Origin: a virus
Lineage: Duplodnaviria > Heunggongvirae > Uroviricota > Caudoviricetes
IMG/VR virus record: IMGVR_UViG_2706794689_000009
DNA length: 39,305 bases
Direction: 5' to 3' (one strand)
Shown: piece after piece, positions 5,044-38,295 of the stretch
Layout: each line of letters starts with the position of its first letter
How positions within the stretch are numbered: the stretch's first letter is position 1
Program-made: the position numbers and the translations under genes
Notes under the pieces: generated by a model
The model's database searches: none
What the model saw: the letters and a program-made list of their open reading frames with translations, nothing else
What the model was told of the DNA's origin: nothing

Positions 5044-5310
5044 ATGAGGTGTTATATGAATATGCAATCCTGCGGTAACAAAATGAATTTATTCGACTCC
5101 CTGAACAGCGCGCGCCGTCTGACCGAACTTGCCGGTGCGGTACTGGAACGCAGTAAGCGCTATCCGCAACGTTTTGCACTGAAAACCACGCCGCCGGTAG
5201 GCAACGTGCAGGGAACCGGTGAAATTGAAATCACCATACAGACCAACGGCCTGCGCCGCCGTGTGAAGGCCACCCGCATCAGCGGCTGCACGGTTTACTG
5301 GGAGGTGTGA
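5044..5310 (+). CDS. Hypothetical early-region protein
   Basis: 88-aa ORF on the same strand, contiguous with neighbours; multiple possible ATG starts (5044/5056/5062). Confidence 0.45.
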   Translation: MRCYMNMQSCGNKMNLFDSLNSARRLTELAGAVLERSKRYPQRFALKTTPPVGNVQGTGEIEITIQTNGLRRRVKATRISGCTVYWEV

Positions 5311-7381: not shown

Positions 7382-7896
7382 TGTTCTTTAAAACATCAAA
7401 CCCTTCCGCGCTGGCTGCGTGGCAAAAATACCAGCAGGACTGCCAGAAAGTTAAGGATGAGGCAAAACGCCTTGAGGCCGTGCTGAATGTTGCGTGCCGG
7501 TCGGTATTTGTATCCGGTATCAGTGGATTTTACTTTAAGGGACTGCGTTTTACGGAGGACAAATATCCTTTTCATCGCGACTTATGGCGAAAACCGACTG
7601 CGTCGAATGGCTGGAGCTGCACACCGCGCACATCACGTATCCCTAAAACCCTGCGTGTTGCCTCTGATGAACTGAACAGTCTGTGGCGTGAATATTCGCC
7701 CGTCACGTATGCCAGAACCGATGCGCTGTTGTTCTGGTTGGGTATTGATTTCTCGGCAATCCTGTTTGGCCCTGTGAAGTGGTTCTGCGTTGACGATGTG
7801 ATTTACCTTCAGTGCGGCGTAAAACCCGCAAAACAGAAAATGACCGAAATACTGTCTGATGAGTTTTATGCTGCTGAAAAGCGAGTCAGGGGGTGA
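7381..7896 (+). CDS. Hypothetical early-region protein
   Basis: 171-aa ORF in the operon; no recognisable motif. Confidence 0.5.
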   Translation: MFFKTSNPSALAAWQKYQQDCQKVKDEAKRLEAVLNVACRSVFVSGISGFYFKGLRFTEDKYPFHRDLWRKPTASNGWSCTPRTSRIPKTLRVASDELNSLWREYSPVTYARTDALLFWLGIDFSAILFGPVKWFCVDDVIYLQCGVKPAKQKMTEILSDEFYAAEKRVRG

Positions 7897-7899
7897 TGC

Positions 7900-8451
7900 A
7901 TGATGAAATTACAACCCATGGGACTAAAAGGTCGCGCCCCCGCTCATGTCCGTCCGTGGACACCTGAAGAAGATGCGCTGCTGATTGCGCTTTATTCATC
8001 CACCCCGGTTAAGGATATTGCTGCCAGAATAAAAAGAACTGTCTGGGCTGTATATAACCGGACTGGTGTATTGCGCAGTTCATACCCGGAGTTACTGAAA
8101 TATAAACACCCAAGATTTACACCTGATGAAGATAAGTTTATTCGAAAAAATGCCAGAACAATGACCTGCCAGCAAATGGGAGAATATCTCGGACGTAATA
8201 AAGATTCTGTCAGATGTCGGGCAGGAATGATTGGTGCTGGATTAACAAAGTGCGGAGAGTTACGCCCCGGCACGCGCATATCTGATGATGATGTACGTCT
8301 TATACGTGAGCTGCGTGATTCCGATTACCCACGCCGTCTGTCATTCCGGGAAATTGGCGAAAAGTTTGGAATATCTGAACATTCTGCTCACGCAGTTTAT
8401 TACCGTCGCCGGACTGCCGAGGACGCTGTATTACGGGAGTTAACGCCATGA
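7900..8451 (+). CDS. Putative DNA-binding protein with two Myb/SANT-like W/FTPEED repeats and a C-terminal HTH-like segment
   Basis: Translation shows WTPEEDALLIALY...VWAVYNR and FTPDEDKFIRKNAR...VRCRAGM repeats, followed by LSFREIGEKFGISEHSAHAVYYRR. Confidence 0.5.
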   Translation: MMKLQPMGLKGRAPAHVRPWTPEEDALLIALYSSTPVKDIAARIKRTVWAVYNRTGVLRSSYPELLKYKHPRFTPDEDKFIRKNARTMTCQQMGEYLGRNKDSVRCRAGMIGAGLTKCGELRPGTRISDDDVRLIRELRDSDYPRRLSFREIGEKFGISEHSAHAVYYRRRTAEDAVLRELTP

Positions 8452-8780
8452 TAACGACCTTATTTGTTGAATCAGATGAACCTCTTGTGTGTGCCGCCGG
8501 AATGCCGCTCTGTGGCGGAACGCTGACCGGCGTTTATTTCGGGGATTTGCGCGGTTATCCCTGGCATTCACTGGATGACGCATTTCCGCCTGATATGGAG
8601 GCTGTCGTGCTGATTGTTCAGTATGGTGACCAACAGGAACTGCGCATCGGCCATATGGGGTATGAAGGCTTTTTTATTGATGAAGAAACCGGAGCCTGCC
8701 TTGAAGATGAGGACGGACAGGTGACGCACTGGTGCCATCTTTCGGCCTTGCCGGAATTACAGGGGATACATAATGGATGA
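8448..8780 (+). CDS. Hypothetical early-region protein
   Basis: 110-aa ORF, overlaps the upstream stop and the downstream start. Confidence 0.45.
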   Translation: MITTLFVESDEPLVCAAGMPLCGGTLTGVYFGDLRGYPWHSLDDAFPPDMEAVVLIVQYGDQQELRIGHMGYEGFFIDEETGACLEDEDGQVTHWCHLSALPELQGIHNG

Positions 8781-8916
8781 GCAAATTGTTGAATGTCCCA
8801 CCTGTGGAAATGAGGACCCGGAGTATCTGAAAGAGTGCCCACATTGTGGTGAGATAAAATGTAACCACTGCGATATGGGCGACGACACTGCATGTATAAA
8901 TTGTGAGGATGAATAA
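8773..8916 (+). CDS. Zinc-ribbon mini-protein (47 aa, four Cys pairs)
   Basis: Hand translation MDEQIVECPTCGNEDPEYLKECPHCGEIKCNHCDMGDDTACINCEDE. ATG overlaps the upstream stop. Below the size cut-off of the ORF track. Confidence 0.4.
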   Translation: MDEQIVECPTCGNEDPEYLKECPHCGEIKCNHCDMGDDTACINCEDE

Positions 8917-8917
8917 T

Positions 8918-9205
8918 ATGGAAAAAGAAATCAAATTTGCGCCTAAATCTATCGACGAAGAACTGGCTAAAATCGGCATGCTTGAACGTATGCGGGACAT
9001 TATCGAATATGCGATAAAAGAAAATCTTGCAGCCAGAGAAGCCCTTTTGATAATGGAGCGGGAGATTAACCTGATTAAGGATGCTGTATCTCTGGATAAT
9101 AAAATAGCCCGCGAGGAATACGTTCGCCGTAGGCTCGGTGTTGATGGTTCAGCAATTCTTACATCTGAACATTATGCAAAAATTTTTAATCTTTTTCAGC
9201 GGTAA
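8918..9205 (+). CDS. Hypothetical protein in AT-rich patch
   Basis: 95 aa from ATG 8918 (MEKEIKFAPK...). The 3' end overlaps the 3' end of a convergent minus-strand ORF. Confidence 0.45.
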   Translation: MEKEIKFAPKSIDEELAKIGMLERMRDIIEYAIKENLAAREALLIMEREINLIKDAVSLDNKIAREEYVRRRLGVDGSAILTSEHYAKIFNLFQR

Positions 9206-9425
9206 TCCCCATACAGGCCCGGAGATTGTCGAAATGCCAGTCGGTATTAATATATGAGCCATCCTGGATATCTTCTGCATTTTCCGGGGTAGAGTTTTTT
9301 TGAGCGAGATTGATAATATGTATTGCCTCCTCACGGGAAATCAGCCCCTTATCGAACAGGGTTACCATAAGATTTCCAGCCATTGTGAATGCGGCAACAT
9401 CAAGTGCATTTTTTATATCTGACAT
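9186..9425 (-). CDS. Hypothetical protein, opposite strand inside the early operon
   Basis: Clean 79-aa ORF (MSDIKNALDVAAF...) with an AAGGA ribosome-binding site about 9 nt upstream of its ATG. AT-rich, convergent with 8918-9205. Confidence 0.45.
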   Translation of the reverse strand: MSDIKNALDVAAFTMAGNLMVTLFDKGLISREEAIHIINLAQKNSTPENAEDIQDGSYINTDWHFDNLRACMGITAEKD

Positions 9426-9455
9426 AGATTTTTCCTTTTATGTTAATTGACATGG

Positions 9456-9487
9456 CGGTGCGGTAACACCGCCCATTTTTTATGGAG
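9456..9487 (+). terminator. Intrinsic terminator-like hairpin GGCGGTG-cggtaa-CACCGCC followed by a T-run
   Basis: 7-bp GC-rich stem followed by ATTTTTTAT, directly upstream of the gemA start. Confidence 0.5.
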
Positions 9488-9495
9488 CCACGATA

Positions 9496-10018
9496 ATGAA
9501 TCGCGCTTCCCTGATTACCTTAATACATGTCGCAAAACGCGATCTACAGCTTGACCATGATACCTATACATCCGCGCTGCTGGCAGCCACCGGCAAATCC
9601 AGTTGCCGTGATATGTCACCCGGTGAGTTATCCCGCGTGCTGGATGTTTTCAAAAAACGCGGTTTTAAAGTGCGTCAGANNNNNNNNNNNNNNNNNNNNN
9701 NNNNNNNNNNNNNNNNNNNNNNNNNNNNNNNNNNNNNNNNNNNNNNNNNNNNNNNNNNNNNNNNNNNNNNNNNNNNNNNNNNNNNNNNNNNNNNNNNNNN
9801 NNNNNNNNNNNNNNNNNNNNNNNNNNNNNNNNNNNNNNNNNNNNNNNNNNNNNNNNNNNNNNNNNNNNNNNNNNNNNNNNNNNNNNNNNNNNNNNNNNNN
9901 NNNNNNNNNNNNNNNNNNNNNNNNNNNNNNNNTGCTGGCAGCCCTGGATATGTCGGAACGTGCAGTGATGAGTTATGAGCGTGTTTGCAGGCTGTATGAA
10001 AAATCATTCCCCCGTTAA
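9496..10018 (+). CDS. gemA: GemA-like early regulatory protein, interrupted by N-mask 9680-9932
   Basis: N-terminus MNRASLITLIHVAKRDLQLDHDTYTSALL...LSRVLDVFKKRGF fits the Mu gp16/GemA family. A C-terminal piece after the mask ends at 10018. Frame continuity across the mask cannot be verified. Confidence 0.55.
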
Positions 10019-10337: not shown

Positions 10338-10597
10338 NNNNNNNNNNNNNNNNNNNNNNNNNNNNNNNNNNNNNNNNNNNNNNNNNNNNNNNNNNNNNNN
10401 NNNNNNNNNNNNNNNNNNNNNNNNNNNNNNNNNNNNNNNNNNNNNNNNNNNNNNNNNNNNNNNNNNNNNNNNNNNNNNNNNNNNNNNNNNNNNNNNNNNN
10501 NNNNNNNNNNNNNNNNNNNNNNNNNNNNNNNNNNNNNNNNNNNNNNNNNNNNNNNNNNNNNNNNNNNNNNNNNNNNNNNNNNNNNNNNNNNNNNNNN

Positions 10598-33471: not shown

Positions 33472-33736
33472 ATNNNNNNNNNNNNNNNNNNNNNNNNNNN
33501 NNNNNNNNNNNNNNNNNNNNNNNNNNNNNNNNNNNNNNNNNNNNNNNNNNNNNNNNNNNNNNNNNNNNNNNNNNNNNNNNNNNNNNNNNNNNNNNNNNNN
33601 NNNNNNNNNNNNNNNNNNNNNNNNNNNNNNNNNNNNNNNNNNNNNNNNNNNNNNNNNNNNNNNNNNNNNNNNNNNNNNNNNNNNNNNNNNNNNNNNNNNN
33701 NNNNNNNNNNNNNNNNNNNNNNNNNNNNNNNNNNNN

Positions 33737-33840: not shown

Positions 33841-34090
33841 NNNNNNNNNNNNNNNNNNNNNNNNNNNNNNNNNNNNNNNNNNNNNNNNNNNNNNNNNNNN
33901 NNNNNNNNNNNNNNNNNNNNNNNNNNNNNNNNNNNNNNNNNNNNNNNNNNNNNNNNNNNNNNNNNNNNNNNNNNNNNNNNNNNNNNNNNNNNNNNNNNNN
34001 NNNNNNNNNNNNNNNNNNNNNNNNNNNNNNNNNNNNNNNNNNNNNNNNNNNNNNNNNNNNNNNNNNNNNNNNNNNNNNNNNNNNNNNNNN

Positions 34091-37122: not shown

Positions 37123-37377
37123 ATGCCAGAAATTAAAGGCACCGTCACTGAAGACCTGGTAAAACAGGCACTGTATTCCGGTGAAGTAAATAAGTTGCTG
37201 AAAGCGCAGGTCCGCAAGGATTTTGAGGCACAAATCGACACTTACGTTGATGAAGTGCTGGCAAAACTTATTGGGCCAGCAGTTGCGGCCAGTGATGCTG
37301 ATAATGAGCCGAAAACCGACGCGCAGCCAGAGCAACCAGACCCGGCTCAGCCCGGAACTGACAGTACCATGATGTAA
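37123..37377 (+). CDS. Small acidic protein (84 aa)
   Basis: Near-consensus TAAGGAGGA Shine-Dalgarno 7 nt before the ATG. Helical N-terminus, acidic Pro-rich tail. Confidence 0.45.
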   Translation: MPEIKGTVTEDLVKQALYSGEVNKLLKAQVRKDFEAQIDTYVDEVLAKLIGPAVAASDADNEPKTDAQPEQPDPAQPGTDSTMM

Positions 37378-37385
37378 CAATACAA

Positions 37386-37463
37386 ACCGGTGGTGTCCTC
37401 TGCCGGTTTGACACTAATGAAAACATCTTTGCCGCTATCCAGCCATATGTAATCGCTGGATAG
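37386..37463. terminator. Two hairpins between convergent genes (AAACCGG...CCGGTTT, and 9-bp inverted repeat CTATCCAGC...GCTGGATAG)
   Basis: Inverted repeats directly visible between the 37123-37377 plus-strand gene and the 37545-37838 minus-strand gene. Confidence 0.35.
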
Positions 37464-37544
37464 TATTTCGTATTCAGAAATATAGCTGCTTATGGAGCAG
37501 TCAATCCTGCTTCCCCATCCGGGCAGGCAAATGAACCGGTATCA

Positions 37545-37838
37545 TTAGTCCGATTCACGCTTTTGTAGAATCGTTCCCAGAATGCTATACAGCTCATTAG
37601 CCTGTTGCTCCATCATTGAGACGGAGGCTATACGGTGCAAAGTGATTTCAGGAGGTGGCACACCTCCATCTTCTTGCTGTGGAGGAAAAACATAAGATTT
37701 AATAAAAAAGTTGAAGCATATGAACTCTCCCGCACTCGAACTGTATTTGCAGGCATCTGAATAATCGGAAAAATAATCATTATAGATTTCCGCATTTTCA
37801 ATCATTTTTCGATTTCTCGTCGTTACATGATTGTCCAT
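37545..37838 (-). CDS. Hypothetical AT-rich protein, divergent from com-mom
   Basis: 97-aa ORF with markedly lower GC than the phage backbone. Its start faces the GATC-containing mom control region. Confidence 0.45.
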   Translation of the reverse strand: MDNHVTTRNRKMIENAEIYNDYFSDYSDACKYSSSAGEFICFNFFIKSYVFPPQQEDGGVPPPEITLHRIASVSMMEQQANELYSILGTILQKRESD

Positions 37839-37961
37839 AGCAGCCTCTTACGCTGGCAATTAACCAATTGACTTCTATAAATTAGTTGATTTGTTTGCTT
37901 TGCGGTATTCAAATGTACAATCATTCAGCACTTATGCGTTACAGCACCGTTTAAAATTAGT

Positions 37962-38047
37962 GATCAAACTCATAAATTTTCGCTAATGACATTTCGTGTT
38001 ATTTGTTGTATCAATTAAATAAATCAAATCGATCGTTTTTGTCGATC
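37962..38047 (+). promoter_or_regulatory. mom upstream control region with three GATC (Dam) sites at about 37962, 38031 and 38044
   Basis: AT-rich intergenic region immediately upstream of com with GATC sites clustered, including the palindromic GTCGATCGAT. In Mu, the mom promoter is controlled by Dam methylation of three upstream GATC sites (OxyR binding). Confidence 0.45.
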
Positions 38048-38094
38048 GATTGAGTGATAAAGATATCAACAACAAAGCAGGAGGTTATGCGGCC

Positions 38095-38295
38095 ATGTAT
38101 CGAAACATACGGTGCCGACATTGTAACAAGCTACTGGCACGAGCCAGCTTCAGTTATCTGGAAGTTAAATGTCCGCGCTGTAAAACCCTCAATCAAATCA
38201 CATCTCAGAGCGCCACAGAGCACCCCACATACACAAGGAAATCCTGTCGTGGGGAACAGAAAGCAAGTTACATCCCGTATCATCAGCACGCCTGA
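38095..38295 (+). CDS. com: Com zinc-finger translational activator of mom
   Basis: From ATG 38095 (AGGAGG 10 nt upstream): [35 protein letters not shown]...EHPT, co-linear with Mu Com including the CxxC-(16)-CxxC zinc finger. Confidence 0.8.

Follow-up and report, generated by a model that had tools for sequence, protein, structure and literature searches.

A conserved convergent gene pair with a predicted antisense terminator at the end of the early region of Mu-like prophages

The 39,305-nucleotide (nt) stretch of caudoviral DNA analysed here (IMG/VR record IMGVR_UViG_2706794689_000009, hereafter the window) is a Mu-like prophage, and its AT-rich patch at 8773–9495 is the orthologue of the Mu gp13–gp14–gp15 block, which forms the end of the semi-essential early region. 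We hold with moderate confidence that the core of this patch is a conserved convergent-transcription cassette, in which a rightward gene (gp14-like) and a leftward gene (gp15-like) meet tail to tail, gp15-like has a dedicated terminator (t15) lying inside gp14-like, and a second terminator-type hairpin of opposite orientation (t+), located before gemA, travels with the pair. The gp13–gp14–gp15 block is already known from Mu but uncharacterised (the literature search returned no paper on Mu gp13, gp14 or gp15), and the window is a further member of it; new here are the recognition of gp14/gp15 as an obligate module, the RNA-selected terminator embedded in gp14 and several corrections of public annotation. 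An earlier note on this DNA had pointed to three small open reading frames (ORFs), a 20-nt overlap, a hairpin before gemA and the AT-richness of the patch. All of these were located where it had placed them (Table 1), while what it took for a peculiarity of this one prophage is the normal Mu arrangement.

The convergent gene pair

The pair was compared in 13 lineages (the window group, Mu, SfMu, D108 and the loci L017, L018, L019/20, L021, L022/23, L024, L025, L026 and L027) spanning Escherichia, Shigella, Salmonella, Klebsiella and Vibrio. A gp14 homologue with a tail-to-tail antisense gp15 homologue was present in 13/13 lineages, with coding overlaps of 4–98 nt; the overlap of about 20 nt reported earlier for the window proved to be exactly that. 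Both the pair and the hairpin are also intact in L021 as well as in L024 and L025 (both Vibrio), where a gene other than gemA comes next on the plus strand. The gp14-like and gp15-like genes thus form an obligate two-gene convergent module. The expectation that all three small ORFs would be conserved in related prophages held for the pair in every lineage and failed for gp13, which was frequent among the lineages but not universal, being absent in L018. In the annotation of an identical E. coli prophage by the NCBI Prokaryotic Genome Annotation Pipeline (PGAP), the 79-amino-acid (aa) gp15-like gene is the sole minus-strand coding sequence (CDS) from ner to the late genes, in agreement with the earlier description of an otherwise plus-strand early operon.

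The plus-strand partner, gp14-like, matched phrog_6075 over residues 1–95 (E = 5.4e-44) and is 48% identical to Mu gp14. Its family is small, comprising 34 clusters from Escherichia, Klebsiella, Salmonella and Vibrio. It was the least variable gene of the block (3.5% variable sites), and its most conserved codons encode the motif N-K-x-A-R-[ED]-x-x-[IV]-R-R-[ER]-L-G. The predicted structure is helical with a 35-residue central helix (predicted local distance difference test, pLDDT, 90).

The antisense gene required closer scrutiny, as the current GenBank re-annotation of Mu (AF083977) has in place of gp15 the CDS Mu_54, which is 55 aa long and runs antisense to it on the plus strand; in Mu, the two reading frames occupy 7960–8127 (+) and 7896–8162 (−), respectively (L001 2433–2600 and 2369–2635). 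A spurious minus-strand ORF is, however, hardly credible. The minus frame alone was open end to end in 12/12 loci, whereas the plus-strand frames were broken inconsistently; the ratio of nonsynonymous to synonymous polymorphism (pN/pS) of gp15-like was ~0.27 among seven natural variants, indicating purifying selection; and a GGA(G/A) motif precedes the start codon by 5–9 nt in all loci. The ribosome-binding site claimed for the 79-aa ORF in the earlier note is the window copy of this motif. Because of the sole open frame, the low pN/pS and the ubiquitous Shine–Dalgarno motif, we conclude from these sequence comparisons that gp15 truly encodes a protein and that the plus-strand alternative lacks support. 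The homology of the minus-strand proteins from Escherichia to Vibrio (E = 4e-18, see below) and their dedicated minus-strand terminator, predicted in the next section, also speak against Mu_54. RefSeq Mu (NC_000929) has carried gp15 on the minus strand at 7896–8162 since the genome paper, overlapping gp14 by 62 nt and lying 70 nt from gemA, and SfMu shows the same arrangement with gp15 on the minus strand. In D108 (GQ357916), a 119-aa gp15 homologue is present but unannotated at ~7853–8212 (L002 1866–2225, −), within the 377 bp that its record leaves empty between gene 14 and gemA.

At the protein level, gp15-like falls into a divergent subfamily. BLASTP of gp15-like against Mu gp15 gave no significant match, and against the D108 ORF E = 2e-6. 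When 1.84 billion representatives were searched exhaustively with HMMER, only nine clusters of the gp15-like subfamily came up, which share the motifs FDxAAFTxAGN...KGxxSxEE and WHLDNL, and a profile search for the gp15-like family gave 18 clusters at 90% identity. When the family profile was aligned by hhalign with Mu gp15, the probability was 93% (E = 3e-7), and with the D108 ORF 95%; a profile built from the Mu-type, Salmonella, D108 and Vibrio antisense proteins aligned with it over 72 columns at 99.0% probability and E = 4e-18. Within the block, variability was highest in gp15-like, with 13.5% of the sites variable and with alleles that form mosaics among the variants. Several natural alleles (P0008, P0009 and P0010) are frameshifted after residues 43–50 at two different sites, one of them an A7 run (window ~9298–9304), and retain just the conserved N-terminal helix pair. 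The AlphaFold2 model of gp15-like is helical (pLDDT 80). A membrane or holin-like role of its hydrophobic N-terminal helix was considered but dismissed, because this helix is not long enough, carries an invariant Asn halfway along and is modelled within a bundle.

All three small ORFs matched PHROG families (E = 3e-26, 5e-44 and 1e-45), which correspond to Mu gp13, Mu gp14 and a small family of 82-aa proteins, and all three were under purifying selection among natural variants (pN/pS ~0.27–0.42). Pfam, PADLOC and Protein Data Bank (PDB) sequence profiles gave no significant match for any of the proteins, with 0 PADLOC hits for four small proteins. Structure searches of the small proteins gave generic or non-significant matches only; a weak but recurring similarity of gp15-like to the helical lid of Hsp70 (E = 0.03–0.1) was judged to be noise. 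No recognisable toxin, antitoxin, defence or anti-defence signature was found in gp14-like or gp15-like by the Pfam, PADLOC, structure and profile searches, and both are predicted to be small soluble-looking helical proteins. The anti-defence or host-takeover roles to which the earlier note had alluded are at present no more than guesses.

Hairpins on both sides of gp15

The predicted terminator of gp15-like, t15, lies on the minus strand within gp14. In 12/12 loci, a hairpin with the pattern AGCyyGCGrCG...CGCGrGCT and a T-rich tail directly behind it (e.g. UUUUUGUUAU) were found 20–78 nt past the gp15-like stop; in the window the distance is 50 nt and the tail reads AUUUUAUUAU. At the same place the GenBank record of Mu (AF083977) has a terminator at 7839–7873 assigned by TransTermHP. 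The hairpin was more stable as minus-strand than as plus-strand RNA in 11/12 loci. Its position coincides with the most conserved gp14 codons, thus the contributions of protein and RNA had to be separated. When synonymous codons were randomised with the amino acids fixed, mean stabilities of −5.9 to −8.8 kcal/mol were obtained compared with −10.8 to −20.9 kcal/mol for the real t15, and only 0–4.6% of the randomisations were as stable as the real hairpin (12/12 loci). Pairing was retained in 90.3% of the cells of the alignment, compared with 33–54% when the partner columns were slid. Two compensatory pairs were found (C-G/U-G/U-A at 4:4:4, and G-C>A-U), along with many G-U pairs. In D108 the protein motif of gp14 is mutated (AH...CR), yet 12/12 t15 pairs are kept. 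The t15 hairpin is therefore selected at the RNA level via the synonymous sites of gp14. As to the window copy, the C>T substitution at 9130 changes an Arg codon of gp14-like from CGC to CGT and removes one G-C pair of t15; this site is C in 6/8 compared copies, the window being among the eight.

On the other side of gp15, the terminator-like hairpin that the earlier note had placed immediately before gemA was found as t+. In the window it has seven pairs (six G-C) and a 6-nt loop (ΔG −12.4 kcal/mol) and was flagged by the terminator scan. A GC-rich hairpin of −12.4 to −17.3 kcal/mol was present in 13/13 intergenic regions, 13–27 nt before the next plus-strand ATG. Since the stem types are not column-homologous, no pair count on a single structure could be made, and each sequence was folded individually and compared with its shuffles: an equally good hairpin arose in 0/150 dinucleotide shuffles of the window intergenic region and in 0–1/150 across the loci. 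Four different stem sequences were observed, the structure being kept across lineages with compensatory changes, and the wobble pairs, where present, favour the plus-strand RNA by 2–6 kcal/mol. The U-tract is strong in the window (T6) and in L017, L021, L024 and L027 (T5–T6). Gp15 is thus bracketed by two unidirectional, oppositely oriented terminator-type hairpins, each conserved at the RNA level. Together with the convergence in 13/13 lineages, these strand-specific hairpins bear out the earlier impression that the pair resembles an antisense-regulated module.

The intergenic region itself is strongly constrained. A block of 151 nt, which includes the 5′ end of gp15-like, the intergenic region and gemA codons 1–20, was identical in the seven natural variants; it is the longest invariant run, is centred on the intergenic region and was reached by 0/20,000 simulations. 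The 70-nt intergenic region had no variable site, compared with 8.7% on average. Plus-strand promoter-like candidates recur just before t+ in most loci (5.5–9.4 bits, in AT-rich DNA), the window candidate lying at the lower end of this range, and the Mu record AF083977 marks a “semi-early promoter” at 8151–8217 in the same interval. The gem operon, which the literature calls molecularly uncharacterised, was reported to be constitutively expressed in lysogens (Paolozzi and Ghelardini 1992, as cited in PMC3820752). On the opposite strand, the best promoter candidate for gp15-like was CTGCCA-18-TATCAT (−10 box at 9557–9562); it was rejected, as it falls outside the invariant block and close variants carry mutations in it. 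The Vibrio-type intergenic regions contain a second strong hairpin (CCTGTTAG...CTAACAGG; L021 ~5262–5310, L024 3500–3550, L025 3503–3555), the 3′ arm of which, in minus-strand RNA, would sequester the gp15-like Shine–Dalgarno sequence, suggesting an added translational control.

Mu, SfMu and D108 share with the window the order of zinc ribbon, ~100-aa gene, ~80-aa antisense gene overlapping its 3′ end, GC hairpin and gemA. All three proteins have homologues in Mu (NC_000929 Mup13, Mup14 and Mup15), and the hairpin GGCGGTG...CACCGCC is common to both. In contrast to Mu, the window gp15-like protein belongs to the subfamily with the C-terminal WHLDNL motif, the coding overlap is 20 nt instead of 62 nt, gp13 is 47 aa rather than 60 aa long, and the T-tract following the hairpin is much stronger (T6 vs CCCTTTCC).

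Accompanying features of the locus

The features of the patch are listed in Table 1. The 47-aa ORF with eight cysteines, which the earlier note had seen upstream of the pair, is the gp13-like gene. All eight cysteines are kept in the window, Mu, D108 and L017 (8/8), and the variable sites fall 2/1/8 on the three codon positions with pN/pS ~0.3, thus the gene evolves like a coding sequence. Pfam zinc-ribbon models matched it below their cut-offs, and the cysteine pattern suggests zinc binding. PGAP omitted this ORF in the identical E. coli prophage (L003 ~9001–9144), and in some Mu-like phages the gp13 zinc ribbon is the C-terminus of a 231-aa protein (L020 5510–6205, −; phrog_6418).

Table 1. 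Features of the gp13–gp14–gp15 block and its borders in the window
Feature	Coordinates	Strand	Basis or remark
gp13-like, 47 aa, eight Cys, four CxxC pairs	8773..8916	+	ORF list; phrog_5584 E = 3.1e-26
gp14-like, 95 aa, plus-strand partner	8918..9205	+	GTG-extended form from 8903
Predicted intrinsic terminator of gp15-like (t15)	9096..9135	-	gp14 codons 61–73; hairpin 9106–9135, U-rich tail 9096–9105
Tail-to-tail coding overlap of gp14-like and gp15-like	9186..9205	.	exactly 20 nt
gp15-like, 79 aa, antisense	9186..9425	-	phrog_32893 E = 1e-45; PGAP WP_001280088.1
Invariant block, 151 nt	9406..9556	.	gp15-like 5′ end, intergenic region, gemA codons 1–20; seven natural variants
Weak candidate promoter CTGACA-18-TTAATT	9419..9448	+	position weight matrix (PWM), 5.5 bits; at the position of the Mu annotated “semi-early promoter”
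Shine–Dalgarno AAGGA of gp15-like	9433..9437	-	7 nt before ATG, read from sequence
Predicted plus-strand terminator (t+)	9454..9483	+	GGCGGTG-CGGTAA-CACCGCC 9454–9473, T6 9476–9481; just before gemA ribosome-binding site
gemA 5′ part	9496..9679	+	first gene after the cassette; remainder masked by N; PGAP “gp16 family protein” in the identical prophage

The 723-nt patch was found in 14/5426 complete E. coli genomes at 92.7–100% identity, and it matched Mu, D108 and SfMu more distantly; a genome-contig search for related loci gave no match. Among the E. coli strains with the identical prophage are 2015C-3121, 2012EL-2448 and JE86-ST05. Its GC content is 41.8% compared with 53.8% for the whole window, which confirms that it is AT-rich and puts it in the bottom 3.1% of windows of its length. 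The early region has one other patch of comparable AT-richness, over the leftward repressor gene. Even more AT-rich stretches (~39% GC) lie at ~750–1500, over this repressor gene, and at ~37350–38200, near the right end of the prophage. Just upstream of the block, two early genes encode a 183-aa protein with SANT/Myb-like and helix-turn-helix parts (7900–8451; phrog_323, “transcriptional regulator, D5-like”) and a 110-aa protein with a sub-threshold DUF551 match (8448–8780), the stop of which overlaps the gp13-like start (ATGGATGA). Four runs of N, ~250 nt each, at 9680–9932, 10338–10597, 33474–33736 and 33841–34090 mask parts of gemA, the mor region and a late region. ARAGORN found no tRNA or tmRNA in the whole window, and the Rfam scan of 8600–9680 found no family. 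The PGAP annotation of a related prophage has a “tRNA-OTHER” (L003 17927–18011, −) flanked by the genes for head morphogenesis and virion morphogenesis.

Possible function and alternative explanations

If the cassette works as its layout suggests, early (Pe) transcripts would cross gp15 wholly in antisense and be partly terminated at t+ before gemA–mor, which might also be fed by a putative intergenic promoter. Gp15 transcripts would be ~350–450 nt long and end inside gp14. The two transcription units would then overlap by ~350 nt, so they would antagonise each other by transcriptional interference and sense–antisense pairing, and consequently gp15 would be favoured when Pe is repressed. The cassette would in this way damp leakage into the mor activator.

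Several observations weigh against this interpretation. The coding overlap varies between 4 and 98 nt, so what is conserved is not the overlap as such. The scan for terminators and promoters and the PWM scan revealed no convincing, positionally conserved sigma-70 promoter for gp15-like. The U-tract after t+ is weak in Mu and D108 (3–4 T in 8 nt). The covariation in t15 is modest, as 41/500 shuffles reach its score, and the loci are phylogenetically related; for this reason the codon randomisation is the main argument for selection on the t15 RNA. Moreover, the derived synonymous C>T at 9130 weakened the window t15 from −15.7 to −9.7 kcal/mol. The Mu early transcript is generally held to reach mor, thus termination at t+ can at most be partial. 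Finally, we purely infer that gp15 would be produced chiefly while Pe is silent, as in lysogeny, and shut off on induction.

Two other explanations of the locus are, in our judgement, possible but unlikely. Morons are autonomous promoter–gene–terminator units in prophages (the concept of Hendrix), and gp15-like could be an accessory gene of this type, expressed from the prophage for superinfection exclusion, defence or anti-defence and placed backwards so as to escape the repression of the early operon. The hairpins would then merely insulate it, and gp14 would be linked to it solely as the host of its terminator. Like a moron, gp15-like is small, has its own Shine–Dalgarno sequence and predicted terminator, lies in a patch that is AT-rich compared with its surroundings (42% vs 54% GC) and is oriented independently of the operon; its high variability and allele mosaicism are typical of conflict genes. 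There is also a precedent in the B3-like Pseudomonas Mu-like phage Fc02, where olg1/olg2 and gene 10 are overlapping antisense genes with exclusion activity (PMC9936078). As in our case, the early region of a transposable phage has protein-coding genes of the two strands lying over each other, and one of the overlapping sets, the reverse-strand genes that exclude other phages, is expressed in the lysogen, the other after induction (PMC9936078). However, the Fc02 locus is a different one, next to the repressor and ner, its proteins are unrelated to those described here, and the overlap is complete instead of tail to tail. In addition, gp15-like is not sporadic as a moron would be: it occurs in every gp14-bearing lineage from Escherichia to Vibrio, overlaps the coding sequence of its neighbour and relies on gp14 for its terminator. 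The promoter scans identified no conserved promoter for it, and neither PADLOC, Pfam nor the structural searches gave a match.

The other of these explanations concerns t+, which could be an element of the 5′ untranslated region of a gem transcript from the semi-early promoter (a stabilising stem-loop or a translational control structure) and not a terminator. Promoter-like hexamers recur on the plus strand with a −10 box that borders on the hairpin, which would place the transcription start at the foot of the stem or close to it, and the Mu record puts the semi-early promoter over the same interval; the weak U-tract in Mu, D108 and also L019, and the spacing of the hairpin from the next start codon, which is always 13–27 nt, fit this possibility as well. 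On the other hand, the T5–T6 tracts of the window, L017, L021, L024 and L027 are typical of terminators, the hairpin accompanies the pair even in L021, L024 and L025, in which the gene that follows has no relation to gemA, and the promoter scores, obtained in AT-rich DNA, are low. The third idea, put forward in the earlier note, was a toxin–antitoxin or addiction-like pair balanced by the antisense overlap, and we regard it as highly improbable. Strict co-inheritance of two small genes, the natural frameshifted gp15-like alleles and the complementary 3′ ends would be in line with it. Convergent transcripts with 3′ overlaps are known from type I toxin–antitoxin systems of Bacillus prophage-like elements (txpA/RatA and bsrG/SR4), which resemble the present pair in being convergent 3′-overlapping units in prophage DNA. 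Unlike those systems, the pair has no small hydrophobic toxin or transmembrane segment, neither protein matched any toxin or antitoxin family in the Pfam and PADLOC searches, and both products appear in the models to be soluble helical bundles, under purifying selection. The genes are not co-directional members of one operon, and neither transcript is a non-coding antitoxin RNA, since each codes for a conserved protein. In line with the lack of membrane segments, the paper on Mu lysis lists only gp19, 20, 23 and 25 as membrane proteins.

Parallels to the convergent-transcription cassette exist in the antisense control of temperate phages, such as the lambda oop RNA acting on cII, sar and ant of P22, and the convergent pR and pL promoters of coliphage 186. 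In these, as putatively here, a short transcript runs leftward over the 3′ portion of an early gene read rightward, at a point where development is decided, and the mechanisms to be expected from this likeness are transcriptional interference and the formation of an RNase III-sensitive duplex. The antisense unit described here differs from them in that it encodes a conserved protein and that its predicted terminator lies within the coding sequence of its partner.

A more far-reaching version, which we put forward tentatively and consider rather improbable, is that the cassette is a convergent-transcription switch gating entry into the middle and late programme of Mu, with two proteins whose antagonistic action might account for an unassigned semi-essential early function such as cim (control of immunity). 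In a lysogen, gp15 transcription and t+ would block leaky early read-through into gemA–mor, while after induction gp15 would be silenced by strong transcription of the early region.

Although Mu serves as a paradigm among phages, its single backwards early gene has been ignored or even annotated away. The comparison corrects public annotation in three respects, namely the GenBank Mu entry with “Mu_54”, the D108 record without a gp15 gene and the PGAP annotation without gp13. It also provides a clean example of RNA-structure selection at synonymous sites; if true, a terminator kept within the conserved protein motif of the partner gene would be an unusually clear case of dual coding. The conservation of gp15 from Escherichia to Vibrio, its pairing with gp14 and the terminator embedded in gp14 bear on the timing and insulation of mor activator expression in Mu-like phages.

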